Numbered from the stretch's first letter, positions 2,983 to 61,185 are shown. The stretch: DNA of 64,000 bases from Candidatus Omnitrophota bacterium (GCA_022710715.1 JAKLGJ010000001.1:298041-362040), one strand, 5' to 3'. Notes: generated from the sequence alone by a model not told the origin. Translations and numbers: made by a program.

Positions 2983-3062
2983 GGGGACACAGCATTTTGC
3001 AAAGGGGACAGATCTGCCCGATTTTCTCGACGGAGGGTTTTGGGTGGACCTGTCCCCTTTTA
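2983..3062 (-). repeat. GGGGACA-family ~80-nt intergenic repeat, copy A (reverse orientation), immediately after the stop of the 969-aa ORF
   Basis: The reverse complement matches the consensus AGGGGACAGGTCCACCCAAAAC..CTCCGTCGA.AAAATCG.CAGATGTGTCCCCTTTG.AAA.TGCTGTGTCCCCTT seen at five other sites in this window. Confidence 0.7.
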
Positions 3063-3075
3063 GCTCCCTTTTAGC

Positions 3076-3104
3076 TTGAAAAGCGTTGCCCGGCGGTTTA
3101 TAAT
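3076..3104 (+). promoter_or_regulatory. Sigma-70-type promoter (TTGAAA-N17-TATAAT) whose -10 ends 6 nt before the ATG at 3111, which suggests a leaderless mRNA
   Basis: TTGAAA at 3076-3081, a 17-nt spacer, TATAAT at 3099-3104. No Shine-Dalgarno sequence fits between the -10 and the start codon. Confidence 0.45.
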
Positions 3105-3110
3105 AGAAGG

Positions 3111-4202
3111 ATGAAGAAACTGCCGGGTTTGCTTTTTTTATGCGCTCTGTGCCTTGCTTCTGTGATCGTACCGGTTGCCGCAGCGGAGAATCCTGCCCGG
3201 GAAGCCTCCTTCTACGAGAAACTCTCCAATAACCAGGTGCAGTGCCATCTCTGTCCGTGGGAGTGCGTACTTTCTTCCGGAAAGCGCGGGATCTGCGGGG
3301 TGCGCGAGAACCGCACGGGTACCCTGTACAGCCTTTCTTACGGCCAGCCGGTGTCCCTGCATATCGATCCCATCGAGAAAAAACCCCTGTTCCATTTCCT
3401 GCCCGGCGCAAACGCTTTTTCCATCGCTACTGCCGGCTGTAACCTTAAATGCGGATTCTGTCAGAACTGGGAGATTTCCCAGGCCAGGCCCGAGGAGATC
3501 GTCAGCCAGACCATTCTGCCGTCGGAGCTGGTGGATAAAGTCCAGGCTTCCGGCGCGTATGTCCTGGCGTATACGTATACCGAGCCGACCGTATTCTATG
3601 AATATATGCTGGAGATCGCCGCTCTGGCCAAAGGCCGGGGGATCAGGAATGTGATGCATTCCAACGGCTTTATCCAGGTCTCACCCCTGGAGCAGTTAAC
3701 CCGGTATCTGGATGCCGCGAATATCGATCTTAAAGGTTTCTCCGAGGATTATTACAAGCGCACCTGCCAGGGGCGGCTGGCCCCGGTGCTGGAAAGTTTA
3801 AAAGTTCTAAGGCGTAAGGGAGTGCATCTGGAGATCACCAATCTGGTCTTGCCCGGGTATAACGACGATCCGGCGCAGATTACCCGGATGTGTTTATGGA
3901 TCAAAGAGAACCTGGGCGCGGAGACGCCGGTGCACTTCTCCCGTTTCCATCCCATGTATAAACTTATCGCATTGCAGCCCACGCCGGTGCAAACCCTGGA
4001 GAGAGCCCGGCAGATCGCCATGGATTGCGGTCTGAAGTATGTTTATATCGGCAATGTGCCGGGGCATCCCGCGGAAAATACCTATTGCCCGCGTTGCAGG
4101 AAAAAAGTGATCGAGCGCGCCGGTTATATTGTTTCGGCCGTGCATCTGAAGGCGGGAGCGTGCTCTTTCTGCAATGAACCGATCGAGGGGGTGTGGGAAT
4201 GA
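3111..4202 (+). CDS. AmmeMemoRadiSam-system radical SAM enzyme (PFL-activase-like). It carries an unusual N-terminal Sec-signal-like hydrophobic extension.
   Basis: N-terminal Cys motif CHLCPWEC...GKRGICGVREN. Radical SAM CxxxCxxC motif (AGCNLKCGFCQNWEIS). Family-typical FYEKL start region, preceded by MKKLPGLLFLCALCLASVIVPVAAA. Confidence 0.75.
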   Translation: MKKLPGLLFLCALCLASVIVPVAAAENPAREASFYEKLSNNQVQCHLCPWECVLSSGKRGICGVRENRTGTLYSLSYGQPVSLHIDPIEKKPLFHFLPGANAFSIATAGCNLKCGFCQNWEISQARPEEIVSQTILPSELVDKVQASGAYVLAYTYTEPTVFYEYMLEIAALAKGRGIRNVMHSNGFIQVSPLEQLTRYLDAANIDLKGFSEDYYKRTCQGRLAPVLESLKVLRRKGVHLEITNLVLPGYNDDPAQITRMCLWIKENLGAETPVHFSRFHPMYKLIALQPTPVQTLERARQIAMDCGLKYVYIGNVPGHPAENTYCPRCRKKVIERAGYIVSAVHLKAGACSFCNEPIEGVWE

Positions 4203-5668
4203 AGATCTGGAGAGCGGTGGCCGCGCTGATGCTGGTTGCGCAGGCGCCCGCGTTCGCCGCAGGCACGCAGGAGCATGTTAAATTTCCGGACGCCGCCGGG
4301 ACTTTTTATGCGTCCGATCCGGTGGAGTTGTCCGCAAGTATCGAGACGTATCTGACTAAAGCCGAAACAGTGTCTTTGCCGGGGCCGATCTTTGCCGTCA
4401 TCGTTCCGCACGCCGGGTATCCGTTCTCCGGGCAGGTAGCCGCGCAGGCCTACAAGCAGCTTCTTTCCCGGTCGTATAAAACCGTGGTGATCCTGGCCTC
4501 AACCCATACCGAGGGGTTCCAGGGGATAGCGGTGTATCCGCGGGGTCTTTTCCGCACTCCGCTGGGGGATATTCCCGTGGATCAGGAATTCGCGCTGCAG
4601 TTGATGTCCAGGCATAAAGAGATCTTCGCCGATGAGCGACTGTTCGACCGGCAGCATCCGATCGAGGTACAGCTGCCTTTCTTGCAGAAGACATTGAACG
4701 ATTTCCGGATCGTGCCACTGGTCATGGGGGATGTCAGCCGGGCTTCCTGCACGTACCTGGCGGAATCTCTGGCGGAGGTTATCGGCAAACGCAACGACGT
4801 GTTGCTTGTCGCCTCCTCCGATATGTATCACGGTTATTCCATTCCCGACGCGCAGCGTATCGACCGGGTAACGTTGTCTTATCTCGAGAAGATGGACGCG
4901 GCGGGCGTATTTCAGGCTTTGTCCGAAGGAAAAGCGCAGTTGTGCGGCGGGTTACCGGTGTATGTGACGCTGTTAACCGCGAAGAATGCGGGGCATAACC
5001 TGCTGCGGGTCCTGGATCATACGAATTCCGCGCAGGTAACCGGCCGTACTGCCGACGGAGAGTGGACTGTCGGGTACAGCAGCTCGGTTATCGATCAGCC
5101 AAAACAAGAGGGAGCCATGTTCAACCGAACACAGAGAAAGAGATTGCTGCAGATCGCCCGGACTTCCATCGAAGCGTATTTGAAAAACGGCAAGCCGATG
5201 GAGGTAAGCGAGAAAGATGCGTTATTGAATCAGACTATGGGTGCGTTCGTCACCTTGCATGAACACGGAGAGCTGCGCGGATGCATCGGCACGATGGTCG
5301 GCAGGCAGCCGTTGTATCTGACCGTCAGAGATATGGCTATCGAAGCGGCTGTAGGCGATCCGCGTTTTTCTCCTCTAAGGCCGGCGGAACTTAAAAATGT
5401 GGAGATCGAGATCTCCGCGTTATCGCCTCTGGAGAAAGTTAAATCCGCCGACGATATCGTCATGGGTAAACACGGGGTGATCCTGAAGAGAGGATTCAGC
5501 AGCGGGGTATTCCTTCCCCAGGTTGCCACGGAGACCGGCTGGACCAGGGAACAATTCCTCTCGCAATTGTGCGCCCAGAAGGCCGGATTGGCCGCGGACG
5601 CTTGGAAGGACCCGGCTACCGAACTGTATGTTTTTACCGCCGAAGTCTTCTCGGAGAAGGAAGAGTAA
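4199..5668 (+). CDS. Fusion of a MEMO1-family protein (AmmeMemoRadiSam protein B) and an AMMECR1 domain (protein A), with an N-terminal signal-peptide-like segment. The start overlaps the upstream stop as ATGA.
   Basis: N-half: GTFYASDP...VIVPHAGYPFSGQVAAQAYK (MEMO1 hallmark). C-half: LHEHGELRGCIGTMVG...PRFSPL (AMMECR1 hallmark). N-terminus MKIWRAVAALMLVAQAPAFAAG looks like a Sec signal. The ATG at 4199-4201 overlaps the TGA at 4200-4202. Confidence 0.75.
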   Translation: MKIWRAVAALMLVAQAPAFAAGTQEHVKFPDAAGTFYASDPVELSASIETYLTKAETVSLPGPIFAVIVPHAGYPFSGQVAAQAYKQLLSRSYKTVVILASTHTEGFQGIAVYPRGLFRTPLGDIPVDQEFALQLMSRHKEIFADERLFDRQHPIEVQLPFLQKTLNDFRIVPLVMGDVSRASCTYLAESLAEVIGKRNDVLLVASSDMYHGYSIPDAQRIDRVTLSYLEKMDAAGVFQALSEGKAQLCGGLPVYVTLLTAKNAGHNLLRVLDHTNSAQVTGRTADGEWTVGYSSSVIDQPKQEGAMFNRTQRKRLLQIARTSIEAYLKNGKPMEVSEKDALLNQTMGAFVTLHEHGELRGCIGTMVGRQPLYLTVRDMAIEAAVGDPRFSPLRPAELKNVEIEISALSPLEKVKSADDIVMGKHGVILKRGFSSGVFLPQVATETGWTREQFLSQLCAQKAGLAADAWKDPATELYVFTAEVFSEKEE

Positions 5669-5674
5669 GCCGGT

Positions 5675-6319
5675 ATGATCAGGACACTGGCGGGAATGTT
5701 CGTTACGGGGGTGCTTTTCTCCAGCGGGCCGTGTCTGTTGAGTTGCGGCCCGGCGGTAGTTTGTTATTGCGCGGGAGCGCGCACCACCACGCGTTCCGGG
5801 ATTATCGGGTATGTTCTGTTTTGCCTGGCCCGCAGCGGGGTGTATTGTCTTTTGAGCCTGGCAGTGTTCTTTTTAGGCGAACTGGCCGCGCGAAATTCGC
5901 TATCGGCCGTCAGCCGGTATGTTTATCCCGTTGCCGGGGCCGGATTGATCGTCCTGGGCGCGCTGATGGCAGTGCAGCGTTTTAAAGCGCGCGGCGCGGC
6001 GAAAGAGCCGATCCGCGCTCGAGACGCGACGAATCTGTTCCTGCTGGGCTGTGTCTACGCGGCGGTTCCCTGTGCTCCTTTCTGGGCGCTGCTTTCGTAT
6101 ATCGGGTTGTATTCCCGCACCTGGGTGGATACGCTGGGTTATACGCTGGCTTTTGCCGCGGGCACATTTATCTCGCCTTTGCTGCTGGCGGTGATACTTT
6201 CCGCGCGCGCTAACGCCCTGTGGCAGGATAAGCGCCGCAAACTGCAGATGGTAATGAGCGCGGCCAGCGGGCTGGTGATGATCATTCTGGGTATCGATTT
6301 CATACGGAGGGCATTCTGA
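5675..6319 (+). CDS. Polytopic membrane protein with Cys-rich TM1 (GPCLLSCGP), possibly a CcdA/DsbD-like thiol-disulfide transporter
   Basis: About 6 predicted hydrophobic helices. Paired Cys in the first helix and conserved Cys later (VPCAPFW). Placed 7 nt after the AmmeMemo fusion gene. Confidence 0.3.
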   Translation: MIRTLAGMFVTGVLFSSGPCLLSCGPAVVCYCAGARTTTRSGIIGYVLFCLARSGVYCLLSLAVFFLGELAARNSLSAVSRYVYPVAGAGLIVLGALMAVQRFKARGAAKEPIRARDATNLFLLGCVYAAVPCAPFWALLSYIGLYSRTWVDTLGYTLAFAAGTFISPLLLAVILSARANALWQDKRRKLQMVMSAASGLVMIILGIDFIRRAF

Positions 6320-7074
6320 TGCACAGATTTTTTTGCGCGGACAGCGATATCGGCGAGGGTTTGATCCATATCCGGGATCGTCAGCAATTGCACCATATTA
6401 AAGACGTGTTGCGGCTCAAAGAAGGCAAATCCGTGACGGTGTGCGATACCGCGGGGAATGAATATGCTGCGACGATCAAAAGCGTGTCCGCGCAGGAGAT
6501 CGTATGCGCGATTAAAAGTAAACGCGCGCGCAGCGCACAGGATCAGGCGTTGATCGCGGTAGCCTGCGCTATCCCCAAACAGTCGCGCATGGACGATATG
6601 ATCGATAAGCTTACCCAGCTGGGCGTTGACAGTATCATGCCCTTGATCACGCACCGGGTGATCGTTAAACTTGACGCTGCCAAGAAACTTGAGCGCCAGG
6701 CTCGCTGGCAGAAGATCGCCGCCAGCGCCAGCAAGCAGAGCCAGAGGACTATTGTCCCGGTGGTGGAAGAAATAATGTCGTTCGACGAAATGCTGGCTGC
6801 CAGCGCCGGGTTCGAGCTCAAGCTTATCCCGACGCTCGACGGAAGTCGGGTGCTTTTGCAGGAAGCGCTGCGCCAGGGGGGCGTCTGTTCGCGCAGCGTG
6901 ATCGTCGCTATCGGCCCGGAAGGGGATTTCACTCCTGAAGAGGTCGAACGCGCTTTACAGGCGGGGTTCCAGCCGGTAAGTTTCGGCACGCAGGTGCTGC
7001 GGGTGGAGACCGCCGCGGTCTATGCGGCCAGCGTGCTGGGGTATGTGTTTCGCGGCCAGGGCAGGGGCGTGTAA
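6319..7074 (+). CDS. rsmE: 16S rRNA (uracil1498-N3)-methyltransferase RsmE
   Basis: The overall sequence pattern is typical of the RsmE family (PUA-like N-terminus, SPOUT C-terminus with GPEGDFTPEE). Confidence 0.75.
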   Translation: MHRFFCADSDIGEGLIHIRDRQQLHHIKDVLRLKEGKSVTVCDTAGNEYAATIKSVSAQEIVCAIKSKRARSAQDQALIAVACAIPKQSRMDDMIDKLTQLGVDSIMPLITHRVIVKLDAAKKLERQARWQKIAASASKQSQRTIVPVVEEIMSFDEMLAASAGFELKLIPTLDGSRVLLQEALRQGGVCSRSVIVAIGPEGDFTPEEVERALQAGFQPVSFGTQVLRVETAAVYAASVLGYVFRGQGRGV

Positions 7075-7077
7075 ACG

Positions 7078-8346: not shown

Positions 8347-8347
8347 A

Positions 8348-8407
8348 GGGGACGTTCCCCAAGGTACCACCCCTGTGACCAGGGGTGGTACCTTGGGGAA
8401 CGTCCCC
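8348..8407 (+). repeat. REP palindrome pair (BIME-like): GGGGACGTTCCCCAAGGTACCACCCCTG, a 5-nt loop, and its reverse complement
   Basis: A perfect ~28-nt inverted repeat immediately after the mtaB stop. The same unit occurs at 29009, 29736 and 32589. Confidence 0.8.
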
Positions 8408-28118: not shown

Positions 28119-28173
28119 TTCCCTTCCCGCAACTCCTCCCAGCTTTTTTTCAATCGGCATAATTGCTTCGCAG

Positions 28174-28327
28174 GTCCCGGCAAGGAGTATTCCGCAGCAC
28201 CGTTCGGTTTTCCCCGCCGAGGAAAACCTCTCTTGGAGAATCTGCTCGCTCGTCCCTGAATGAAGCGCGGGGACACCCTGGCCGCTCGCATATCCTTACA
28301 TGCTGCTCCATACTCCTTGCCGGGACC
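28174..28327 (+). ncRNA. Candidate structured RNA or element, copy 1. A 17-bp outer stem and an 8-bp inner hairpin, then a conserved ~75-nt core shared with 43807..43955.
   Basis: Outer inverted repeat GTCCCGGCAAGGAGTAT/ATACTCCTTGCCGGGAC. Inner hairpin GGTTTTCC/GGAAAACC. Core CTTGGAGAA.CTGCTCGCTCGTCCCTGAA...GGGACACCCTGGCCGCTCGCAT..T.CATGCTGCT. Confidence 0.35.
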
Positions 28328-28407
28328 GACAAAGCAGCTGTGCAGATTAAAAAATTTCAGGAATGATTTGAAATTGATTGTGTATCGAGAAGAGTGGAGT
28401 GAGGGGG

Positions 28408-28971: not shown

Positions 28972-29008
28972 AGGAAGTATTGTAACAAAAAACCGCATTT
29001 TGTCAAGT

Positions 29009-29761
29009 GGGGACGTTCCCCAAGGTACCACCCTTGAGCAAAGCGACAAAAATGTATGTTAGATTCCCGCTCTTCAAGCGTCTATTAAGTTAAAAAGGAG
29101 GGCGGTATGCCTAGAGGTCCCAGATTTCTGATGGATGACGGGTATTATCACATTGTAACGCGAGGAAATAACAAAAAGTTGCTGTTTATCGATGAATTCG
29201 ATTATGAAATGATGAAAAAAACTATCGCCAGATATTTAGAAAAGTTTAACATTGGCCTCGTGCATTACTGTTTGATGCCTAATCATCTTCATTGGGTGGT
29301 GCAAACATGGACAGCCCGAGATCTGCCGAAATTCATGCAGGGCGTATTGCAGGTGTATGCCGCATATTTCAAAGATAAATACAGCGCAGTCGGTTATTTG
29401 TTCCAGAATCGCTATAAAAGTTTGTTTATTGATAAAGAAAGTTACCTTTTGGAATGTGCGCGGTACATCGAAAGGAATCCTCTAAGGGCGAAATTGGTAA
29501 ATGACCTTCGCGAATATAAATACAGCAGTTTTCATTATTATGCCCTGGCGCAACCGGACGAATTGCTTAATAAAATCAATCCTTTATACAAGGATTTCGG
29601 GAGTAATCCGGTTGCACGTCAAGCTGCGTATTTGAAGTATGTGCTTCAAGAACGGCCGTACGATCAGATTGTTGATGATGTGTTCAGGATCAGGTGAATG
29701 TATAGTGCAGTTGCGATGAATATTGAAAAATTTCAGGGGTGGTACCTCGGGGAACGTCCCC
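29009..29761 (+). mobile_element. REP/RAYT unit: two inverted REP copies flanking a REP-associated tyrosine transposase gene (low GC)
   Basis: REP at 29009..29033 (+) and 29736..29761 (inverted) bracket the Y1-transposase-like gene at 29107..29697. The internal DNA is markedly AT-rich relative to its surroundings. Confidence 0.75.
29107..29697 (+). CDS. REP-associated tyrosine transposase (RAYT; IS200/IS605 TnpA-like Y1 HUH enzyme)
   Basis: HUH motif HLHWVV. Catalytic Tyr region YIERNPLRAKLV. Size about 196 aa. Flanked by inverted REPs. Confidence 0.75.
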   Translation: MPRGPRFLMDDGYYHIVTRGNNKKLLFIDEFDYEMMKKTIARYLEKFNIGLVHYCLMPNHLHWVVQTWTARDLPKFMQGVLQVYAAYFKDKYSAVGYLFQNRYKSLFIDKESYLLECARYIERNPLRAKLVNDLREYKYSSFHYYALAQPDELLNKINPLYKDFGSNPVARQAAYLKYVLQERPYDQIVDDVFRIR

Positions 29762-29884
29762 GATTTTTTTCTTGACAAAAAAATCTATTTAGGTTAAAAT
29801 GTGCCTCTATATTAGTAGTTAACCACAAGCATAACCTTCTGTAAATTATTCCGTTACAACAACTTGTAGAAAAGGAGCTTTTTT

Positions 29885-32587: not shown

Positions 32588-32588
32588 A

Positions 32589-32648
32589 GGGGACGTTCCC
32601 CAAGGTACCACCCCTGGGTTCAGGGGTGGTACCTTGGGGAACGTCCCC
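32589..32648 (+). repeat. REP palindrome pair (BIME-like), same family as 8348..8407
   Basis: GGGGACGTTCCCCAAGGTACCACCCCTG, the loop GGTTC, and the reverse complement, immediately after the guaA stop. Confidence 0.8.
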
Positions 32649-35700: not shown

Positions 35701-36148
35701 GACCCGGAAGAAACAGGAAAAAATGGCGATTTTGAAAGTGGAAGATCTGGAGGGCGTGGTGGAAGTGCTGGTTTTTCCCTCGGCATATCAGAAAATCTCC
35801 CGGTACATCCAGGTTAATAACGTGGTTTTGATCCGGGGCAAGCTGGATCTCAAGGAAAATACCCCGAAAATCATCGCCAACGATCTTTTTCCCATCGATG
35901 AAGTATCGAAATTAATCACTTCCGTGGGGGTAGAACTAGCCGGGATCCGCGAGCACGTCTTTGGCAGCCTTAAAGAACTGCTCGCTAAATCTCCGGGTTC
36001 GGTCCCGGTATATCTCCATCTGGATACTCCCGCTCGTTCAAAAGTCCAAGTGCTTGTCGGGCAGGAACTTTTCGTAACTCCCACCGATGAATTGATCACT
36101 GACATCGAAAATCTGCTCGGTTCCGAGCGCGTCTCCCTCAAACTCTAG
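32705..36148 (+). CDS. dnaE: DNA polymerase III alpha subunit
   Basis: PHP N-terminus (FVHLHLHTQYSLLDG) and colinear DnaE motifs across 1147 aa. Confidence 0.9.
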   Translation: MPHADFVHLHLHTQYSLLDGACRISDLLETAKKYNMDALAITDHGNMFGALEFYLAAQKAGIKPIIGCEVYVAPRSRTDREGGMDDVAHLILLARNETGYQNLMKLVSVGYLEGFYYKPRIDKEILAQYKDGLIGLSACLKGEIPQMLQQLRYNDALKAADTYLSIFGKDNFYLEVQENNLPEQKTVNEGLINLSRQLGIPLVATNDVHYLAKQHARAHEALLCIQTQNTLLDENRFRFKTQEFYFKSPDEMKALFKELPDALRASVDIAARCNLELEFSRVHLPKYEVPAGKTKEEFIRQLCEEGLKRRYPEAGSLIKKRLDHELKTIQDMGFVNYFLIVWDFIHYAKGQHIPVGPGRGSAAGSLVSYLLGITDIDPLKYNLLFERFLNPERISMPDIDIDFCYERRPEVIEYVTRKYGKENVAQIITFGTMQARAVVRDVGRVMGLPYADVDRIAKLIPPMDPTNPDYGLKDALQSEPELSGLYKNDPQITQLVDIALSLEGLNRHASTHAAGVVIADKPLTNYMPLFMTPEDQITSGYGMKDLEKIGLLKVDFLGLRTLTVIDQAVKLIKVNRGKDIVINSLPLDDPATYDLLRCAHSFGVFQLESSGMRDLLRKLDAERFEDLIALLALYRPGPMGSGMLDDFIKRKKGLVPIKYDHQLLEPILKDTYGIMLYQEQIMFIASLLAGFSLAQADLLRRAMSKKIPEVMEQQRKTFVSGCQKNGVKESIANKIFDQIVYFSGYGFNRSHSAAYALVSYQTAYLKANFPVEFMTALLTSERDNTDKIVEYVNEAERMKIRVLPPDINESDAYFKIENTGDIRFGLLAIKNVGRGAVESIVRSRTEVGRFASLEDLCSRIDLRLVNRKVLESLVKCGAMDSFKQHRSQMFSSLEAVLESASRTQKEKATGQLSFFDQVSELNGFQTRTTPLEEIKEWPEPQLLAFEKDLLGFYISGHPLARYARQLKRFSSSEINLLPTHKDEDMVKIVAMITTVKNTVTRKKQEKMAILKVEDLEGVVEVLVFPSAYQKISRYIQVNNVVLIRGKLDLKENTPKIIANDLFPIDEVSKLITSVGVELAGIREHVFGSLKELLAKSPGSVPVYLHLDTPARSKVQVLVGQELFVTPTDELITDIENLLGSERVSLKL

Positions 36149-36473
36149 GGGACAACTTTAGGGGACAGGTCCACCCAAAACACCTCGACGGAGAAAATCG
36201 ACAGATGTGTCCCCTTTGCAAAATGCTGTGTCCCCTTTTTACCTTAATCCTGCATATGAGCGCACCCGGCAGCTTTGTTCGCTCAGTAGAATTTTTCCCT
36301 TCGGGTCGTCCTTGCGTTTGTATAAACGCCAGGACAAAATTCTAAATTCGCTCACCAAGCCGCCGGATACGCTCATATGCACAATAAATACTAAAGGGGA
36401 CACAGGAAATTCTGAAGGGGACACATCTGTCCGTTTTTATCGACGGAGGCTTTTGGGTGGACCTGTCCCCTTT
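36148..36473 (+). repeat. Composite palindromic element made of GGGGACA-family copy B, a 12-nt IR (TGCATATGAGCG), a ~110-nt core, the matching IR, and an inverted GGGGACA-family copy C
   Basis: Copies at 36148..36240 (+) and 36397..36473 (inverted). IR at 36251-36262 and 36370-36381. The core carries a CCCTTCGGG hairpin. Confidence 0.6.
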
Positions 36474-36638
36474 GACTTTAAGTGCTTAGAAAATCGCGGG
36501 ATACGAATTTTAGTTGACCGCGCGGCAGTTTTATGCTATTATTAGAATAATTACGTAACTTCCTATTTGTGTTATACTTGCAACGAAATTTCAACTCGGA
36601 AGAAATTTATTCACAACTTTTTAGCTGGAGGTGCCTCA

Positions 36639-43775: not shown

Positions 43776-43806
43776 AGCTGTCAGAGCGCCTGGTTAGCGG
43801 CGAGTA

Positions 43807-43955
43807 TGTTCTAAAGCATCACCGCTCGTCCTGCCCACCGTGCAGGACTCGCTTGGAGAAGCTGCTCGCTCGTCCCTGAAGCAATAGCGGGACACCCTGG
43901 CCGCTCGCATCTTCTACATGCTGCTTTAGAACACACTCGCCGCCAATCGAGTATT
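43807..43955 (+). ncRNA. Candidate structured RNA or element, copy 2. A ~20-bp outer stem and a 7-bp inner hairpin (GTCCTGC/GCAGGAC), then the same conserved core as 28174..28327.
   Basis: Outer IR GGCGAGTATGTTCTAAAGCA / TGCTTTAGAACACACTCGCC. The core is about 85% identical to copy 1. Confidence 0.35.
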
Positions 43956-44000
43956 CTGGCAGCTTACTATGCGGTCGAGGAGAATGGAGGGATCGAATAT

Positions 44001-44961: not shown

Positions 44962-46668
44962 ATGAAAAACGCTCTTGTCGCTGAAATTTTTCGCAGTATC
45001 GCGCAGATTCTGCAGATTCGCGGGGATAATCGCTTTCGCATCCGGGCCTATGAGCGCGCCGCGGCAAATGTCGAAGGGTATGCCGAAGACATCGAATCCG
45101 TGGCCCGGCAGGGGCGGCTGCAGGAGATCCCGGGTATAGGCGAGGATTTGTCCGAAAAGATCGAAGAGATCGTGCGCTCCGGGAAATTGAAGTTCCTGGA
45201 TGAGCTTAAACGGGAAATTCCTTCCGGCGTTCTCGACTTGTTGTCCGTTCCCACCGTTGGTCCCAAAACCGCCCAGATACTTTACCGGCAACTGCATATC
45301 GACAGCATCGCCGCGCTGCGCCACGCCATCGAAGCGCATCAACTGCAGGCGCTCGCCGGGTTCAAAGAAAAAACCATAGAGAATATCCGCAAAGGCGTCG
45401 CTCTGGTGGAAAAAAGCCGGGAACGCATGACCTTGCATCAGGCGATCCAGGTATCCGAAAAATTCGTCAGCGCCCTCAAAAAGCTTCCCCGGGTGGAGGA
45501 GATCGTCTGCGGCGGGAGCCTGCGCCGCTGTAAGGAGAGCGTGCGCGATATCGATATCCTGATCGTTTCGGGCAATCCGCAGGCAGTGATGGACGCTTTT
45601 TGCGCTCTGCCGATGGCCAAAGAGATCCTGGCGCACGGGCAGACCAAAGCTTCGGTACGCACGCCGGCCGGAGTGCAGGTGGATTGCCGGGTAGTGGAGA
45701 AAAAAGCTTTCGGCGCGGCGCTGGTGTATTTTACCGGTTCCAAAAATTTCAATATCAAATTGCGGATGCTCGCCCAGAAGAAGAAGGCCAAGATCAACGA
45801 GTACGGCCTTTTCAAAGGCGAGCGTTTCATCGCCGGAAGGACAGAAGAAGAGCTGTTTAAAGCCCTGGGCATGCAGTTCGTCGATCCCGAGATCCGCGAA
45901 GATACCGGCGAGATCGAGCTGGCCCTGCAGGGGCGTCTGCCTCGGTTGGTCGAGCACAAAGACCTCAAAGGCGATCTGCATATGCATTCGGCCTGGTCCG
46001 ACGGGATCAGCAGCATCGAAGAGATGGCCCGGTCCGCCCGCAGCCTCGGCTACAGCTATATCGCGGTCACCGATCACTCCCAGGGGTTGAAAGTAGCCAA
46101 CGGGTTAAGCCCGGCGTCCCTGCTTAAAAAACGCAAAGAGATCGACGCGCTCAACCGGCGCCTGCGCGGTGTGCGCGTTTTATTCGGCGCGGAAGTGGAT
46201 ATCGATGCCGAAGGCCGGCTGGATTATCCGGACGCGATTCTCAAGGAATTCGAGATCGTGGTCGGGGCCATACACTCCGGGTTTAAACAACCGGCCGGGC
46301 AGATCACCCGCCGTCTTATCCGGGCCTGCGAAAATAAGTATGTGCATATCATCGCGCATCCGACGGGAAGGTTGATCGGGTCGAGGGAAGCCTATGCGTT
46401 CGACATGGAAGCGGTGCTGCGCAGCGCCGCCAGAACCCGCACCGCGCTGGAGATCAATTCTTTTCCCGACCGCATGGATCTCAACGATACGCATTGCCGC
46501 ATGGCCAAAGAAGCGGGGGTGCGCATCAGCATCAATACCGATTCGCACGCCGCGGATCAATTGACCAACATCCGTTACGGCCTGGCCATGGCCCGGCGGG
46601 GCTGGCTGGAAGCCGCAGATGTTCTCAACACGCTGCCCCTGGACCAGCTTCTCCAGGAGCTGAAATGA
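44962..46668 (+). CDS. polX: Family X DNA polymerase with a C-terminal PHP domain
   Basis: Pol-beta-like N-terminus (GIGEDLSEKIEEIV, RRCKESVRDIDIL) plus a PHP C-terminus (DLHMHSAWSDG). Confidence 0.8.
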   Translation: MKNALVAEIFRSIAQILQIRGDNRFRIRAYERAAANVEGYAEDIESVARQGRLQEIPGIGEDLSEKIEEIVRSGKLKFLDELKREIPSGVLDLLSVPTVGPKTAQILYRQLHIDSIAALRHAIEAHQLQALAGFKEKTIENIRKGVALVEKSRERMTLHQAIQVSEKFVSALKKLPRVEEIVCGGSLRRCKESVRDIDILIVSGNPQAVMDAFCALPMAKEILAHGQTKASVRTPAGVQVDCRVVEKKAFGAALVYFTGSKNFNIKLRMLAQKKKAKINEYGLFKGERFIAGRTEEELFKALGMQFVDPEIREDTGEIELALQGRLPRLVEHKDLKGDLHMHSAWSDGISSIEEMARSARSLGYSYIAVTDHSQGLKVANGLSPASLLKKRKEIDALNRRLRGVRVLFGAEVDIDAEGRLDYPDAILKEFEIVVGAIHSGFKQPAGQITRRLIRACENKYVHIIAHPTGRLIGSREAYAFDMEAVLRSAARTRTALEINSFPDRMDLNDTHCRMAKEAGVRISINTDSHAADQLTNIRYGLAMARRGWLEAADVLNTLPLDQLLQELK

Positions 46669-46766
46669 GGGGACAGGAGCTGAAATGAGGGGACAGGTCC
46701 ACCCAAAACAGCTCGTCGAGAAAATCGGACAGATGTGTCCCCTTCGTAAATTGCTGTGTCCCCTTC
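46669..46766 (+). repeat. GGGGACA-family repeat copy D, with a 20-nt tandem duplication spanning the polX stop (46655-46674 equals 46675-46694)
   Basis: AGGAGCTGAAATGAGGGGAC occurs twice in tandem, then GGTCCACCCAAAACAGCTCGTCGAGAAAATCGGACAGATGTGTCCCCTTCGTAAATTGCTGTGTCCCCTT. Confidence 0.7.
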
Positions 46767-46783: not shown

Positions 46784-47731
46784 ATGCCAGGTTATCCACA
46801 GGCCTTCCGGGACTGCCTGTGGATAACTTTTGCGCTGCTGGTTTTCATCGGTTGCCGGCCGCAGGAGCCGGTGATGCACCGTCAGACCCGGGTGATGATG
46901 GGCACGTTCGTAGAAGTGGTTTCCCCTGACCCGCGCGCCGGAGATATCGCTTTTAAAGAAATCGGACGCGTTGAAAATCTGTTGAGCAAATACAAACCCG
47001 ACAGCGAGATCGCGCAGCTCAACAAACTCGGACGGCTCAAGGTTTCCCCGGCCACCTGGTTCATTCTGACCAAGGCCAAAGAATTCTGGTACGCTACCGA
47101 CGGAGCTTTTGATATTACCGTCGGGCCACTCATGGATATCTGGGGTTTCACCGGGAAGCAATTCCGCATCCCTTCCGACGGAGAAATTACCGCGGCGCGG
47201 CAGTCGATCGGCGCGAATAAAATTATTTTTCACGAAGCTAATAGTGTGGTAGAATTGGGTATTCCAGGGATGAAAATCGATCTGGGCGCCGTGGCTAAAG
47301 GATACGCGGTTGATTGCGCAGTGCAGGCTTTGCGCGCCGCCGGTATCTCCAGCGCGTTAATTAACGCCGGAGGCCAGATCTATTGCCTGGGCGTCCGAAG
47401 CAGCACGCCCTGGCGCGTGGCTATCCGCGATCCCCGTGGTAAGGGAACGTCGAAGTCCGTCGATATGACGGACAAAGCCATCGCTACATCCGGCGATTAC
47501 GAGCAGTATTTCATCGTCGGCGGCAGGCGCTATGCGCATATCATGGACCCGAAAACCGGCTATCCGTCCGAGTCCGGGGTGGTTGCGGTGACCGTGATCG
47601 CCGATGACGGATTAACCGCGGATTTTCTGTCCACCGCTATATTTGTACTGGGTAAAACAAAGGGCCTGGCGTTAGTGAAACGTTTCCCCGGCGCCAGGGT
47701 TACCATAGAAGGTCCGCATGAACCAGATTAA
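46784..47731 (+). CDS. apbE: FAD:protein FMN transferase (ApbE family) lipoprotein
   Basis: Lipobox (LLVFIGC) plus ApbE motifs (MGTFVEVV, DLGAVAKGYAVD). Confidence 0.75.
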   Translation: MPGYPQAFRDCLWITFALLVFIGCRPQEPVMHRQTRVMMGTFVEVVSPDPRAGDIAFKEIGRVENLLSKYKPDSEIAQLNKLGRLKVSPATWFILTKAKEFWYATDGAFDITVGPLMDIWGFTGKQFRIPSDGEITAARQSIGANKIIFHEANSVVELGIPGMKIDLGAVAKGYAVDCAVQALRAAGISSALINAGGQIYCLGVRSSTPWRVAIRDPRGKGTSKSVDMTDKAIATSGDYEQYFIVGGRRYAHIMDPKTGYPSESGVVAVTVIADDGLTADFLSTAIFVLGKTKGLALVKRFPGARVTIEGPHEPD

Positions 47732-56265: not shown

Positions 56266-56353
56266 GGGGACAGGTGCCCGCAGGGCAACCCAAAACTCTC
56301 CGTCGACAAAAATCGACAGATGTGTCCCCTTCGGAATTTGCTGTGTCCCCTTT
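56266..56353 (+). repeat. GGGGACA-family repeat copy E (variant with GGTGCCCGCAGGGCAACCC in place of GGTCCACCC)
   Basis: Immediately after the stop of the sigma factor gene. Confidence 0.7.
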
Positions 56354-56371
56354 ATCCGAAAGAGCGAGCCG

Positions 56372-56908
56372 ATGAGAAACGTAACCGCATTCCTCGAGCA
56401 ATCCGTCCGGAGTATCCCGGACTTTCCCAAGCCAGGCATTCTCTTCCGCGACATTACCACGCTGATCAAAAGTAAGATGGCGTTCCGGTACGCCGTCGAC
56501 GCTCTGGCCCGGGAATTCAAACATAAAAAGATCGATAAGATCGTGGGGATCGAATCCCGGGGTTTTGTTTTCGGCGCGGCTTTGGCATATAAGCTGGGCG
56601 TAGGGGTGGTGCTGGTGCGCAAGAAAGGCAAGCTTCCGGCAGCCACGGTCAGCGCTTCGTACGAGCTGGAATATGGCAGCGATACCCTGGAAATGCATAA
56701 GGACGCTTTGCGCCCCAAAGAGCGGGTGCTGATCATAGACGATTTACTGGCTACCGGCGGCACGGTCAGCGCGGTGATCGATCTGGTGAAACAGCTCCGG
56801 GGCAATATCGTCGGCATCGGTTTTGTGATCGAGCTTTTCGACCTGCATGGCCGCGATAAACTCAAAGGCTATCCGGTTTCTTCGCTCATTAAATTCCCCG
56901 GTCATTGA
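56372..56908 (+). CDS. apt: Adenine phosphoribosyltransferase
   Basis: PRTase motif LIIDDLLATGGT. Confidence 0.85.
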   Translation: MRNVTAFLEQSVRSIPDFPKPGILFRDITTLIKSKMAFRYAVDALAREFKHKKIDKIVGIESRGFVFGAALAYKLGVGVVLVRKKGKLPAATVSASYELEYGSDTLEMHKDALRPKERVLIIDDLLATGGTVSAVIDLVKQLRGNIVGIGFVIELFDLHGRDKLKGYPVSSLIKFPGH

Positions 56909-56987
56909 GCTCATAAATCAACGCGCCTGTCCCTGCAGATGCCGGCGGCATCCAACGCAGGGATACGGCCGCGACGCATAAATCAAC

Positions 56988-57061
56988 GCGCCTGTAGCTC
57001 ATATGGATAGAGCAGCAGTTTCCTAAACTGCTTGTGGCTGGTTCGATCCCAGCCAGGCGCA
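56988..57061 (+). tRNA. tRNA-Arg (anticodon CCT)
   Basis: Hand-folded cloverleaf. Acceptor GCGCCTG/CAGGCGC, D stem GCTC/GAGC, anticodon stem GCAGT/ACTGC with loop TTCCTAA, T stem GCTGG/CCAGC, T loop TTCGATC. Confidence 0.85.
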
Positions 57062-57076
57062 TGAAATTCCACAGAA

Positions 57077-57739
57077 ATGTACAACTTCCATACGCATACC
57101 ATTCACAGTGACGGATGTCTTCTGCCTTCGGAGATCGCGGTGCGTTATGCTGCCGCCGGATACAGAGCTATCGCGATCACCGACCACGCCGATTACAGCA
57201 ATATAGAGCAGGTCATCCGCGCGGTGCGTGACTTTACCCAGCACTGGCCCCGGCGTTTCCCGCTGCAGGTGCTGCCCGGGGTGGAATTGACGCATCTGCC
57301 TCTGGAGCAATTCAAACCGCTCGCCGCGTATTCCCGCAAGAACAAACTCAAGATCATCGTCGCTCACGGCCAGACGCCGGTTGAGCCGGTCATTCCCGGG
57401 ACCAACCTCGCGGCTCTGGAAGCGGATATCGACATCCTGGCCCATCCCGGCCGGATCAGCGATGCGGAAGCCAGGCTGGCCGCGCGCAAGCGCATTTTTC
57501 TGGAGATAACCACGCGCCGCGGTCATTGCCTGACCAATGCCTGGGTAGCCAGGCAGGCTTTACGCTGGAAGGCGCCGATGCTGGTCAATCATGACAGCCA
57601 TCGTCCCGAGGACATCATCTCATTGCCGCAAACCCTGCGCGTAGCGCTCAAGGCCGGCCTGAACGAGTCTCAAGTGGAAGCCATTTACCGGGAGGGGGGA
57701 AAGCGGTTTCTTTCCCGTCTCCGGAAGCAGACTTTTTGA
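57077..57739 (+). CDS. PHP-domain phosphoesterase
   Basis: MYNFHTHTIHSDG...AITDHADY. Confidence 0.6.
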   Translation: MYNFHTHTIHSDGCLLPSEIAVRYAAAGYRAIAITDHADYSNIEQVIRAVRDFTQHWPRRFPLQVLPGVELTHLPLEQFKPLAAYSRKNKLKIIVAHGQTPVEPVIPGTNLAALEADIDILAHPGRISDAEARLAARKRIFLEITTRRGHCLTNAWVARQALRWKAPMLVNHDSHRPEDIISLPQTLRVALKAGLNESQVEAIYREGGKRFLSRLRKQTF

Positions 57740-57858
57740 AGTTTACCATTGCCGCTCCCGGAAGGTGAGTGTTTACAATTTTCATCACGATTTTAGCTTA
57801 AAATATCGCGTAACATCCTGCCGGGCAGCACATTATGCCAATAATTCCAAAAAAATAC

Positions 57859-57887
57859 TTGACAACTTCCTATATATATGTAAGAAT
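57859..57887 (+). promoter_or_regulatory. Putative sigma-70 promoter (TTGACA, a 16-17 nt spacer, TG-n-TAAGAAT) in a ~330-nt AT-rich region. It would give a ~180-nt 5' UTR for the downstream outer-membrane protein gene.
   Basis: TTGACA at 57859-57864. TGTAAGAAT at 57879-57887. Confidence 0.3.
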
Positions 57888-58066
57888 GACTAATCAGTTT
57901 ATACCACTGGAAATGACTTTAATCTCAAGCGTGAGAGGAGGTGAAGACAAATACAAGCCTAAAGTCAGCCAAAATCCAGTGATATAATATAAATGAGTAA
58001 ATATCTAGGAGCACAATCTTCAAACCTAGTTTAATATATTGTTATCCTAAAAGGAGGAAACACAAA

Positions 58067-59383
58067 ATGAGTAAACGCTTAATCTTAGTTTTGGCACTCG
58101 CGTTGGTCGTCGGCCTTACCGCTGGCGCTTACGCTGAAGTCCAGAATGTCAAAGTCGGCGGCGATATTACCATGGTCGGCGTGACCCGCAGCAACCTCGA
58201 TCTGAACAAAGAAATCATGGGCGACGATGTTCAGCAGGTTGTTAACGCCAAAGGCCTGGCCAGTATCACCAGAGTCAAGATTGATGCCGATCTGACCGAC
58301 AATGTTTCCACCACCGTCAGATTGATCAACGAAAGAGTCTGGGGAAGCGCTGATGAAACCGTCTCCAATTCCGATGTGGACCTGGATCTGGCTTTTGTCG
58401 CTTTCAAGGATTTCCTCAAGGACACCATTACCGTTCCTTTGACCTTGATCGCCGGCCGTCAGGAAATCAGAATCGGCAGCGGTTTGTTGGTTTCTCACCC
58501 GGGTGGAAACCAGGGTAATGTCGGCGCCACCGCGGTTGCTTTACCTCGCGGTATTGGTGATTTGAGCTCCCGTAGAGCGTTCGATGGTATCGCCGGCGTA
58601 TGGAAGTGGAGCGATCAGCTCACTACCACCACCGCTTATGTGAAAGCCGTCGAAGGCGTCATCACCGATGAACATGATACCGATGTGTATGTTGTGGACA
58701 GCACCTTTGATACCGGCAAAATGGGTATGGTTCCTGAACTGTATTATGTAGGTTCAGATGCCAAAAAAGGCCAGGTTAACAATTTCGGCGCCAGAATCAA
58801 CGTCGCTCCTGTTGAGAACCTGAACCTGTCAGCCGAATTCTGCTATCAGACGCAGAAGGGTGTGAACAGACTTACCGGCAAAACCAATCACGCTACCGAC
58901 AACGCAATTCTGCTCGGCGCTAATTTTGCCATGCCGGATGTGGTCTGGGCCCCGTCTTTCGGCCTCGACTATGCCCGTTTGTCCGAGAACTGGAATATTA
59001 TGCATGAAGGCTTGACTCCTGCCGACATCGCTAACTTCCTTTTCGCGAACACCAATTGCACCGTAGTCGGCATCACCGTCAGCGCCAAGCCCAAGGATGA
59101 CTTGAGCTTGAAACTGCGTTATGCCGATTTCACTCTCGTTGAGCCGTTGACCGCAGCCGGAACCATTGCGTATAATGGCGCCGCGTTGACCACCGGTCAG
59201 TCCTATACCATGACCACCAAGAAGCATCTTGGCGCTGAACTCGACCTGGCTCTGGCCTATGACTACACAGAAGATGTGCAGTTCGGCCTGAACTATGGTT
59301 ATTTCAGACCGGGAAAAGCGTTCGATAAGTCGAATCGCAATTCCGCTTCCCAGGTCATTGGTTCAATGAAGGTGTCCTTCTAA
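58067..59383 (+). CDS. Outer-membrane beta-barrel protein (porin-like) with a signal peptide and a C-terminal Phe
   Basis: Strong RBS AAAGGAGGA. Signal peptide LILVLALALVVGLTAGAYA. Alternating amphipathic beta-strand pattern. Ends ...MKVSF. Confidence 0.5.
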   Translation: MSKRLILVLALALVVGLTAGAYAEVQNVKVGGDITMVGVTRSNLDLNKEIMGDDVQQVVNAKGLASITRVKIDADLTDNVSTTVRLINERVWGSADETVSNSDVDLDLAFVAFKDFLKDTITVPLTLIAGRQEIRIGSGLLVSHPGGNQGNVGATAVALPRGIGDLSSRRAFDGIAGVWKWSDQLTTTTAYVKAVEGVITDEHDTDVYVVDSTFDTGKMGMVPELYYVGSDAKKGQVNNFGARINVAPVENLNLSAEFCYQTQKGVNRLTGKTNHATDNAILLGANFAMPDVVWAPSFGLDYARLSENWNIMHEGLTPADIANFLFANTNCTVVGITVSAKPKDDLSLKLRYADFTLVEPLTAAGTIAYNGAALTTGQSYTMTTKKHLGAELDLALAYDYTEDVQFGLNYGYFRPGKAFDKSNRNSASQVIGSMKVSF

Positions 59384-59404
59384 TCGGACCTATGCACTGA
59401 AAAA

Positions 59405-59438
59405 GCCCCTGGGAGAGAAATCTCCCGGGGGTTTTTTA
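59405..59438 (+). terminator. Rho-independent terminator
   Basis: CCCCTGGGAGA-GAAA-TCTCCCGGGGG followed by TTTTTT. Confidence 0.7.
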
Positions 59439-59549
59439 TTCCTGCGCGCGGATCTGCGCGCATTCCTCTCAAGCGCGAAAGCGTATGGTTGAGTTAATTA
59501 AGTTGAGGGGTCAAGTGCGCGCGCATTCAGCCGATAAATAATCTATCCT

Positions 59550-61106
59550 ATGGTCTACCTAGCCATCGTTTACCACATGCACCAGCCGTATTACAAGAAT
59601 CTGCTCAACAACCAGACAGACATGCCCTGGGTGCGTTTGCACGGGATCAAGGATTACCTGGACATGCTGCTGCTGGTGCAGCGGTTCCCCAAGGTGCACC
59701 TGACCATCAACATGGTGCCTTCGCTCATGGAGCAGATCGATGATTACGAGAAGGGGCTGGTCAAGGACCGTTTCCTGGATATTTCCGCCAAACCCGCAGC
59801 CGAACTGAACCAGCAGGAAAAAGATTTCGTGATCAATAATTTCTTCATGATCAACAAAGAGCGGGTGATCGCGCGCTATCCGCGTTACTATGAATTGTAT
59901 TTCATGAAAGAGACCCAGCAGCATTTCAGCGCCCAGGATGTGCTGGATCTGCAGGTTTGGTTCAACCTGGCCTGGTTCGACCCGATGTTCACCGAAGATA
60001 TGCCGGAGCTGCGCAAAGTCATGCGCAAGGCCCGCTTCTTCAATGAGCAGGATAAGAAGACCGTGCTTAAAGCGCAGCTGGATATATTGAAACAGATCCT
60101 GCCGGCTTACCGCAAAGCCATAGCCGAAAAGCAGGTGGAGATCACGGTTACGCCGTATTATCATCCCATCCTGCCGTTGTTGTATAACACGCGTTTGCAG
60201 CTGGAAGCCAATCTCAAGAGCACGCTGCCTCCGGTCACTTTTTCCTATCCCGAAGACGCCCGCCAGCAGATCAACATGGCGGTGGAGTATTTCAAGAATA
60301 AATTCGGGGTCCCTCCCGTAGGCATGTGGCCGTCCGAAGAATCGGTCTGCGAGCATATCGTGCCGTACCTGATGCAGGCCGGGATCAAATGGATCGTTAC
60401 CGATGAAGCCATTCTCTTCAAATCGTTGAAGCGCAAGCGCCGAGATACCAGGCTGCTCTATCAGCCGCATGTCCTGCACCGGGAAGAGGGGGATCTCAAT
60501 ATCATTTTCCGCGACCGCAACCTTTCGGATCTGATCGGATTTGTCTATCCCAACTGGCTGGCGCAGGACGCGGTGAACGATTTCATGGGGCACATCGAAA
60601 ATATCTCCAAGGCGTACAAGGGCAAGGATGTTTTCGTAGCTATCGCGTTGGACGGGGAGAACGCCTGGGAATATTACAAGAACGACGGCCACGATTTCCT
60701 GGAAACTCTGTATCAGCGTTTGTCCGACGCGCCGTTCGTGCAGGCGGTAACCCCGAGCGAATATTTCGAGAAGCATCCTCCGACTGCGCAGATCAAACGG
60801 CTTTCCGCCGGCTCCTGGATTTACGGGGAATTCTCGAAGTGGATCAATAACCCCTATAAGAACAAAGGATGGGAGTACCTGACGTATGCCCGCCAGGCTC
60901 TGCAGCGTCAGATCGATGAGAAGCAACCGGTTTCGGATCTGACCTGGAAACAGATGCACGTGGCAGAGGGCAGCGATTGGTACTGGTGGCTGGGGGAGGA
61001 CTACCCCGGTTACTTCGACAGCCTTTTCCGCATGCATCTGTCCAACTTCTACACCATGCTCGGCCGCGACGTCCCCGACTATCTGAAACGCCCCATCTCT
61101 CCCTAA
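59550..61106 (+). CDS. Glycoside hydrolase family 57 (alpha-glucan-active, branching-enzyme- or amylase-like)
   Basis: N-terminus HQPYY...HGIKDYLDM, typical of GH57. Confidence 0.8.
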   Translation: MVYLAIVYHMHQPYYKNLLNNQTDMPWVRLHGIKDYLDMLLLVQRFPKVHLTINMVPSLMEQIDDYEKGLVKDRFLDISAKPAAELNQQEKDFVINNFFMINKERVIARYPRYYELYFMKETQQHFSAQDVLDLQVWFNLAWFDPMFTEDMPELRKVMRKARFFNEQDKKTVLKAQLDILKQILPAYRKAIAEKQVEITVTPYYHPILPLLYNTRLQLEANLKSTLPPVTFSYPEDARQQINMAVEYFKNKFGVPPVGMWPSEESVCEHIVPYLMQAGIKWIVTDEAILFKSLKRKRRDTRLLYQPHVLHREEGDLNIIFRDRNLSDLIGFVYPNWLAQDAVNDFMGHIENISKAYKGKDVFVAIALDGENAWEYYKNDGHDFLETLYQRLSDAPFVQAVTPSEYFEKHPPTAQIKRLSAGSWIYGEFSKWINNPYKNKGWEYLTYARQALQRQIDEKQPVSDLTWKQMHVAEGSDWYWWLGEDYPGYFDSLFRMHLSNFYTMLGRDVPDYLKRPISP

Positions 61107-61185
61107 GGGGACAGGTCCACCCAAAACCCTCCGTCGATAAAATCGTACAGATGTGTCCCCTTTGAGAATTGCTGTGTCCCCTTTT
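61107..61185 (+). repeat. GGGGACA-family repeat copy F
   Basis: AGGGGACAGGTCCACCCAAAACCCTCCGTCGATAAAATCGTACAGATGTGTCCCCTTTGAGAATTGCTGTGTCCCCTTTT immediately after the GH57 stop. Confidence 0.7.

Follow-up and report, generated by a model that had tools for sequence, protein, structure and literature searches.

Hairpin repeats abutting stop codons in a Candidatus Omnitrophota bacterium as probable derivatives of the terminal inverted repeats of a Y1 transposase unit

A 64,000-nt stretch of the genome of a Candidatus Omnitrophota bacterium (GCA_022710715.1 JAKLGJ010000001.1:298041-362040, hereafter the window) contains six copies of a repeat of about 80 nt, here called F1, which as a rule carries the heptamer GGGGACA once at its 5' end and twice, inverted, at its 3' end, and five copies of which lie directly against a stop codon. 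What kind of element is F1, and how did it come to be placed so exactly? A reading made from the sequence alone (the sequence-only reading) had proposed repetitive extragenic palindrome (REP)-like terminators or mRNA stabilisers, or a miniature inverted-repeat transposable element (MITE) with an insertion preference for gene ends, and had suggested looking for a transposase of the REP-associated tyrosine transposase (RAYT) kind. Our analysis covered 80 kb of the source genome (the window, 6.9 kb upstream and 9 kb downstream) within a 1.62-Mb contig, and indicates that the REP/MITE-with-RAYT interpretation was largely right: with a probability of about 0.75, F1 and a second repeat family, F2, are non-autonomous elements that form hairpins and derive from the terminal inverted repeats of a TIRYT/RAYT-type HUH-Y1 transposase unit (a 'TIRtron'), an intact example of which lies at 29009-29761.

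The anatomy of F1 was largely as first described. A search of the window with nhmmer and a profile of the six copies recovered each of them, with E-values of 1e-24 to 1e-26, at the coordinates and in the orientations originally given, and no further match. The copies align over about 80 nt with pairwise identities of 73-91%, and the consensus quoted for them was correct. GGGGACA occurs 22 times in the window versus 7.2 +/- 2.8 times in shuffled sequences (0 of 100 shuffles reach 22), and 20 of the 22 occurrences fall inside the six copies. The 5' end of F1 is GGGGACAG, and both 3' units read GGGGACAC on the bottom strand; the two GGGGACAC units at the right end (GGGGACACATCTGTCC) are 21 nt apart, the inner one being contained in a small GGACA-GATG-TGTCC hairpin. 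The layout of one forward and two inverted heptamers holds for four copies and fails for copies 2 and 4, each of which has two forward heptamers. The extra heptamer of copy 2 (36148-36240, + strand, core 36161-36240) lies at 36148-36154, ahead of the one at 36161, and stems from a 13-nt tandem duplication of ACTYTAGGGGACA with one mismatch (region 36142-36167). The forward heptamers of copy 4 (46669-46766, + strand, core 46689-46766, between polX and apbE) lie at 46669 and 46689 and stem from an exact 20-nt tandem duplication of GGAGCTGAAATGAGGGGACA that includes the polX TGA (region 46656-46695). Both duplications are tandem and restricted to one side, comprise the 3' end of the gene, its stop codon and GGGGACA, and remake a second stop-plus-heptamer unit together with a symmetric hairpin of 2+2 heptamers; that in copy 4 is bounded by CAGG. 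Copy 5 (56266-56353, + strand) has an insertion of about 10 nt within its 5' arm. Copy 3 (36396-36473, - strand) is the inverted partner of copy 2, and the 155-nt spacer between them (36241-36395) is itself an imperfect palindrome (GCATATGAGCG...CGCTCATATGC), of which no second copy was found in any sequence examined. The region 36144-36480, which comprises copy 2, the spacer and copy 3 and makes up the whole dnaE-HU spacer, folds as one nested hairpin of about 330 nt (-174 kcal/mol, z = -17.7).

A REP-like or MITE-like nature of the repeats is supported, and the suspected RAYT-like transposase is encoded within the window itself. An intact gene at 29107-29697 (+ strand) codes for a 196-aa HUH/Y1 tyrosine transposase of the RAYT/TIRYT type with the motifs NHLH (residues 59-62), FQNRY and YIERNP, all invariant or nearly so in 25 homologues. 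Y1_Tnp is its only Pfam domain (E = 1e-14, residues 12-124), and its only NCBIfam match is REP_Tyr_transpos ('REP-associated tyrosine transposase', NF047646), with 64.9 bits versus a cut-off of 80. The AlphaFold2 model (pLDDT 87) has as its best match in the PDB the E. coli TnpA_REP protein with its REP hairpin (4ER8; TM 0.78, E = 4e-8), the predicted fold being nearer to this structure than to IS608/ISDra2 or any IS200/IS605 TnpA structure; the last 70 residues, modelled as helices, match no helix-turn-helix (HTH) family. The gene is bracketed by a left inverted repeat at 29009-29038 (+ strand, GGGGACGTTCCCCAAGGTACCACCCTTG) and a right one at 29732-29761 (+ strand, CAGGGGTGGTACCTCGGGGAACGTCCCC), the latter followed by T7. 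These arms connect the gene with F2, a family absent from the sequence-only reading and found by a repeat search. F2 is a perfect 61-nt palindrome (AGGGGACGTTCCCCAAGGTACCACCCCTG-loop-CAGGGGTGGTACCTTGGGGAACGTCCCC; -65 kcal/mol, z about -11) with two copies in the window, copy a (8347-8407; 28-bp stem, 4-nt loop) and copy b (32588-32648), which agree at 58 of 61 nt and differ in the loop only. A single nucleotide separates copy a from the TAA of a MiaB-like radical-SAM gene and copy b from that of guaA. Both transposase arms match the corresponding F2 arm at 27 of 28 positions, i.e. F2 equals the left and right transposase arms joined, with the gene removed; the hairpin of the F2 arm is GGGGACGTTCCCC. 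The identical 196-aa protein is found on 12 contigs from several samples, always with the same neighbours, and the 80 kb covered contain a single Y1 gene.

Two features of the transposase unit itself may be added here. Near-consensus sigma-70-like promoters (11 of 12 matches) lie just outside both arms, at 28979-29006 (- strand) and 29772-29800 (+ strand), and face outward to the neighbouring genes. The right arm together with the T7 run scores as a terminator for the transposase gene.

Does the architecture of F1 recur in the repeats that flank related transposases? Homologues of the resident protein (51-59% identity) are mostly named Candidatus Omnitrophota, and the pyruvate phosphate dikinase of the window is 85% identical to many proteins from this phylum. 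A scan of species-representative genomes yielded 355 transposase relatives, of which 80 loci were kept, mostly from Omnitrophota metagenome-assembled genomes (MAGs), 73 of them with usable flanks. Inverted repeats of at least 16 nt bracket the Y1 gene in 64 of these 73 loci, and 54 of the 64 have the GGGAC core. The right arm touches the transposase's own stop codon in 49 loci, and the left arm usually lies about 65-110 nt upstream of the start codon. The arms in this clade are two-part, with two GGGGAC[GA] motifs 15-16 nt apart: the outer module reads GGGGACGT(T)CC..., and the inner one, 15-16 nt further in, A[AG]GGGACACCC or AAGGTACCACCC, with variable bases that co-vary between the left and right arms. 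It is this two-part repeat that the layout of one forward and two inverted heptamers matches, and the inner module of one relative, from an Omnitrophota single-cell genome (AAAGGGGACAGGTCT, also given as AAGGGGACAGGTCC), equals the 5' end of F1. Extra copies of the arms are present in five of the loci, among others.

A looser form of the F1 3' doublet, TGTCCCCTT-N8-12-TGTGTCCCCTT, was used in a metagenome scan and found in at least 109 loci. These belong to unrelated families, about a quarter with an inverted GGGGACA at most 70 nt upstream (among the matches listed). Y1 transposases of an NHVH/YIELNP type are encoded at nine of these loci, and six or seven of the nine genes are directly flanked by GGGGACA/TGTCCCC arrays (AAAAGGGGACA and TGTCCCCTTT), which independently supports the connection of such repeats with Y1 enzymes. 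In many lineages the heptamer arms have apparently multiplied by duplication, and the one-sided duplications in copies 2 and 4, together with the heptamer arrays beside other Y1 genes, look like slippage at hairpins. Eight loci contain 3-6 tandem GGGGACA(TTCC) units followed by equal inverted (GG)TGTGTCCCCTT(TCC) arrays, with a period of 11-22 nt, and some of these arrays directly adjoin Y1 transposase genes. Another GGGGAC-ended family common to several genomes is a 53-nt palindrome (GGGGACGGTTCTAT...ATAGAACCGTCCCC), identical in three Omnitrophota MAGs (L138:3108-3160, L147:9071-9123 and L157:8153-8205), which usually follows TAAA or AAAA.

F1 itself is lineage-restricted. Its 3' doublet had no match in 185,579 species-representative genomes, a set from which the source species is absent, and a true F1 copy was present in one locus among the metagenome matches listed; this copy, from another organism, is not adjacent to a stop codon. 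A scan of viral contigs with the 5' 16-mer of F1 gave seven matches, all within unrelated sequence and attributable to chance. The 6.9 kb upstream and 9 kb downstream of the window, on the same contig, contain no further F1 copy. The expectation of hundreds of copies per genome was extrapolated from the window and finds no support in these 16 kb; the abundance observed is eight elements (F1 and F2 together) in 80 kb, unevenly spread.

The statement of the sequence-only reading that every copy lies next to a stop codon on the + strand stands for five copies (distance from the stop to GGGG of 0, 0, 0, +1 and -1 nt) and falls for copy 3, which adjoins no gene's stop codon: a TAA triplet does precede it, but the dnaE stop is 247 nt away. 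The doublet (two-heptamer) end of copy 1 (2983-3062, - strand) adjoins the TAA (2979-2981) of a HEAT-repeat gene with 1 nt between them; the 969-aa open reading frame (ORF) named in the sequence-only reading is the C-terminal part of this 1861-aa gene, which the window edge truncates. In copy 2 the dnaE TAG supplies the first G of GGGGACA, copy 5 is directly 3' of the TAA of a sigma-70 gene and 18 nt before the ATG of a phosphoribosyltransferase gene, and copy 6 (61107-61185, + strand) is directly 3' of the TAA of a GH57 gene. Counting F1 and F2 together, seven of the eight complete elements in the window start -1 to +1 nt from a stop.

The same geometry was sought around the related transposases, using each genome's own arm sequence (122 arms in 53 other loci) and measuring how far the outer GGGG end lies from the stop codon of an approaching ORF of at least 100 aa. 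A distance of -1 to +1 nt was found for 13 of the 122 arms versus 0.7% of random intergenic-like positions (p = 6e-12, about 15-fold), and a distance of -3 to +8 nt for 34 of the 122 versus 2.8% (p = 2e-24); these p-values are rough, as the arms are non-independent and the ORF calls mechanical, although the size of the effect is not in doubt. In 11 further cases an ORF ends inside the arm, and several transposase units have TAG|GGGAC on both sides. The base preceding GGGG is A in 30 of 55 left arms and the one before it is T in 23 of 55; therefore the terminus is often TA-GGGGAC, and the stop codon is completed by the first base of the element. When 756 kb of other Omnitrophota loci were searched for any GGGGAC...GTCCCC hairpin, 17 were found, none of them 0-1 nt from a stop; the abutment signal is seen only with each genome's own arm sequence. 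Stop abutment is unusually exact here, and the phylum appears to be new for this kind of repeat.

Are the elements insertions, or original parts of the gene ends? Three syntenic Omnitrophota loci keep the gene order polX-apbE-...-pyruvate phosphate dikinase-sigma-phosphoribosyltransferase-...-GH57, and their orthologous sites are without F1. The spacer between the sigma and phosphoribosyltransferase genes measures 8, -11 and 9 nt in these genomes versus 106 nt in the window, 88 of which are copy 5; polX and apbE overlap (ATGA) in one of them, and in general the junctions corresponding to copies 4 and 5 are overlapping or 8-9 nt apart. The C-termini of the upstream proteins are kept where the element is absent (..QEKE* or ..QEKD* in sigma, ..PISP* or ..PIVP*, i.e. 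PI[SV]P*, in GH57), and that of PolX is conserved as well. The empty orthologous sites and the unchanged C-termini thus identify the F1 copies as insertions exactly after native stop codons, without truncation of any gene, and support the originally proposed insertion at gene ends. Copies 4 and 5 are located within operons and end 17-18 nt upstream of the next start codon. The mechanical ORF call for apbE, from the ATG at 46685, reads in frame through copy 4 (MRGQVHPKQLVEKIGQMCPLRKLLCPLRKTQAA-MPGY...); homology to apbE starts at residue 45 of this long ORF, and therefore the likely start is the ATG at 46784, which leaves copy 4 intergenic. Repeats of this kind can inflate gene calls, as they explain the over-long apbE ORF.

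Taken as derivatives of transposase repeats, the F1 copies would consist of a two-motif right end and a one-motif left end, the latter becoming two-motif after duplication in copies 2 and 4, which would explain the 1+2 layout. A Y1 enzyme may recognise GGGGAC together with small terminal hairpins on single-stranded DNA (GGGGA-CGT-TCCCC in F2, GGACA-GATG-TGTCC in F1), by analogy with E. coli TnpA_REP, which reads GTAG plus a hairpin, and the gene-less elements would have been spread by the resident enzyme or by a paralogue elsewhere in the genome. As for the gene ends, two factors most likely account together for the placement at stop junctions, a weak terminus or target containing TA and strong purifying selection. 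If TA precedes GGGG at the terminus or target, a stop codon would be recreated as TA+G or TA+A, and purifying selection in a very compact genome would spare only the insertions at stop junctions; where an operon junction measures no more than 18 nt, the ribosome-binding site would stay intact only after insertion at the first few positions behind the stop. Effects on the mRNA, such as 3' stabilisation or partial termination, would be secondary.

Could the copies instead be kept for what they do as RNA? Whatever its origin, F1 might by now be a host-retained element in which the ribosome terminating on the upstream gene covers the 5' arm and thereby picks the hairpin, tuning 3'-end stability, partial termination or re-initiation on the following cistron. 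Its copies stand exactly against stop codons, those numbered 4 and 5 occupy the operon junction in full, with the next ATG 17-18 nt further on, and E. coli REPs located about 15 nt or less from a stop codon reportedly affect translation. The proposed pairing of the 5' heptamer with either 3' heptamer was also borne out, as both of the mutually exclusive hairpins occur as minimum-free-energy folds (with the proximal partner in copy 1, the distal one in copies 3, 5 and 6, and nested double hairpins in copies 2 and 4). However, a covariation test on seven F1 copies gave zero compensatory pairs in any stem, the paired columns being invariant or altered on one side only, and thus lends no support to a function at the RNA level. 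The F1 copies occur in both orientations, the copy in the other organism is not beside a stop, F2 abuts stops equally well without an alternative fold, and transposase units elsewhere abut stops too, which points to the geometry of insertion or selection rather than to an RNA switch. We consider this explanation unlikely. Distinctly unlikely, in our opinion, is a combined version in which the insertion mechanism itself reads the stop junction, TA|G(GGGAC) being both the cleavage or target site and the regenerated stop, and in which F1 was kept as a translation-gated RNA switch, with the ribosome hiding the 5' arm and choosing between two hairpins that control the mRNA 3' end or the coupling to the next gene.

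Conventional mobility and no mobility at all have also to be weighed. F1 could be a MITE moved by an unrelated TA-targeting DDE transposase (IS630/Tc1-like, as for Correia or ERIC), its resemblance to Y1 repeats being coincidental. The TA-targeting MITEs, such as Neisseria Correia elements and enterobacterial ERIC and YPAL, are hairpin repeats of 80-150 nt with inverted ends, lie near or over stop codons and are co-transcribed with the upstream gene; F1 similarly has MITE-like terminal inverted heptamers, and TA or TAA/TAG often directly precedes GGGG at the ends of F1, F2 and the transposase units. In those elements, however, the TA is clearly duplicated and a Y1 partner is lacking, while at the present sites no duplication is apparent and ends of this kind are found on a Y1 gene. 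TA flanks some F1 copies on both sides, but not consistently, being absent from copies 4 and 6; neither the window nor any other locus examined contained a DDE transposase with such ends; and Y1-flanking repeats in dozens of genomes share all three features, GGGGAC core, two-part architecture and stop abutment. This makes a DDE-driven origin very improbable. Scarcely credible is the suggestion that the copies are ordinary, non-mobile intrinsic terminators that converged in place. It is true that stems are present in all copies, that in each orientation F1 ends with GTCCCC followed by 2-5 T, and that terminator-like hairpins in relatives also begin directly after stop codons, but about 80 nt, unpaired interior included, are 73-91% identical at unrelated loci and are missing from orthologous sites. 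The T-runs comprise at least 4 T in copies 1, 2 and 6 and 2-3 T in copies 3, 4 and 5, and F2 has none. Copies 4 and 5 are inside operons, with no room for a downstream promoter and with T-runs of 2-3, which speaks against termination as the general role of these elements, the first of the roles considered in the sequence-only reading; an obligate terminator role is unlikely.

A CRISPR array, an attC site and a small ORF were also considered for F1 and rejected on anatomy, as it has no spacer array, integron core sites or conserved reading frame. Rfam searches of the whole window at gathering thresholds detected two tRNAs only, and permissive scans of three sub-regions nothing credible.

Several observations weigh against a derivation of F1 from Y1 transposase repeats, or at least limit it. 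The resident transposase carries the arms of F2, not those of F1, which shares with them just the GGGGAC core and a GGT(A)CCACCC block; the alignment of F1 with the transposase flanks scores marginally above shuffles (z about 2-3) and is unconvincing as homology. As judged from these sequences, F1 appears to be tied to the resident enzyme by family resemblance rather than identity, and no cognate enzyme for it emerged from the sequences examined. The resident protein falls below the NCBIfam cut-off for RAYTs, has no C-terminal HTH and is shorter than typical TIRYTs of subclass 2.1 (see below). A target-site duplication or fixed flanking target was sought, and only a weak TA preference was found, with no shared flank beyond A/T richness. 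The F1 copies are fixed in all sampled populations and, at 73-91% identity, give no sign of current activity. The 80 kb covered belong to a genome of at least 1.6 Mb, and we know of no transposition chemistry demonstrated for any TIRYT.

Among known systems, F1 and F2 come closest to the RAYT-like genes with long inverted repeats instead of GTAG REPs that were described by Di Nocera et al. 2013 and named TIRYTs/TIRtrons; many of their repeats share GGGGWSAS, and some families are moderately abundant as singles, dimers and clusters (PMC3733652). Most TIRYTs were assigned by Quentin et al. 2018 to subclass 2.1 of TnpA_Y1, which was equated with Bertels group 1 and comprises proteins with a median length of 238 aa and a C-terminal HTH (PMC6006769). 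Likewise, the Y1/HUH gene of the window is flanked by long terminal inverted repeats (28-nt arms) rather than GTAG REPs, has the HuH motif and the class-2 Y motif (Y---NP), appears to be of low copy number and is accompanied by dispersed repeat copies (two F2 dimers in the window). The F1 ends GGGGACAG and GGGGACAC fit GGGGWSAS, while the outer motif of the resident repeat and of F2, GGGGACGT, breaks it at position 7; among the relatives, 17 of 64 have an exact GGGGWSAS in the left arm, in most cases as the inner module. The resident protein also differs in its length of 196 aa, in the lack of a detectable C-terminal HTH and in its HuH motif, NHLH; a better fit to subclass 2.1 is given by more distant Y1 genes in three of the metagenomic loci (225-240 aa, NHVH/YIELNP). 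Candidatus Omnitrophota, the host phylum, is apparently not represented in the two surveys (PMC3733652, PMC6006769), and the asymmetric mini-element with 1+2 heptamers and a quantified stop abutment appear to be undescribed for TIRtrons/TIRYTs.

In the REP/REPIN-RAYT systems of Proteobacteria (Nunvar 2010, PMC2817692; Bertels and Rainey 2011, PMC3116915; Messing 2012, PMC3479197), as at this locus, a short palindromic repeat brackets a Y1 transposase gene in inverted orientation and is dispersed in extragenic space, mostly downstream of genes. The transposase of those systems is single-copy and vertically stable; here, one copy was seen in 80 kb, with constant neighbours on 12 contigs. The two-arm hairpin of F2 resembles a REPIN, the predicted fold is nearest to TnpA_REP (4ER8), and flanking ORFs are reported in the REP/RAYT literature to obtain their TAG stop from the termini of GTAG REPs, as happens with TA|GGGGAC here. 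There is, however, no GT[AG]G at the hairpin foot, the ends being (T)A(A)GGGGAC; the arms are 28-nt two-part repeats versus single hairpins of 20-40 nt; and the resident protein is under the NCBIfam equivalog cut-off. With IS200/IS605 elements (IS608, ISDra2) the unit has in common the HUH/Y1 catalytic fold and, presumably, recognition of hairpins in single-stranded DNA with insertion beside a short target. It differs from them in its Y motif, YIERNP (class 2) versus Y---Q, in the lack of an adjacent tnpB partner, in its gene, present once in the 80 kb covered and at a fixed locus, and in having true inverted terminal repeats instead of asymmetric subterminal hairpins.

These findings extend the relationship between REPs and RAYTs, or between terminal inverted repeats and TIRYTs, to Candidatus Omnitrophota, an uncultured phylum with compact genomes, and offer an explanation for an odd repeat with 1+2 heptamers, as the inverted repeats of the transposases are two-part and F1 is laid out alike. 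This class of Y1 enzymes is provided with natural substrates of three kinds: the intact gene and its arms, the perfect palindrome of two arms, and the asymmetric mini-element. The quantified stop abutment and the exact empty sites make it testable whether such repeats are aimed at gene ends by the enzyme or filtered by selection.

Three further features, separate from F1 and F2, were noted in the window and its surroundings. A third repeat, D20, occurs at 28151-28348 and 43791-43960, with a core of about 80 nt that is 87.5% identical between the two intergenic sites (CTTGGAGAA.CTGCTCGCTCGTCCCTGAA..GCGGG(G)ACACCCTGGCCGCTCGCAT..) and is flanked in each copy by different, locus-specific, self-complementary arms, the closing stem of which seems to co-vary. 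D20 has no Rfam match even at E <= 10 and may represent either a structured RNA not yet described or a further mobile hairpin. About 2.6-3.2 kb upstream of the window, on the same contig (L211:3664-4285), there is a direct duplication of about 90 nt (AGATTCTTCCCGGTCGCATCCGCGGCCCGGGATGAAAAG to CAGGGGCTGTAGCT) that includes the first bases of a tRNA gene and may be the kind of scar left by an element integrated at, or excised from, a tRNA. Finally, a tandem repeat with an 18-nt period at 63083-63261 lies in a 154-aa ORF (63046-63510) and encodes a Lys/Ala-rich KKxAAKK sequence that resembles histone H1 or a nucleoid protein.

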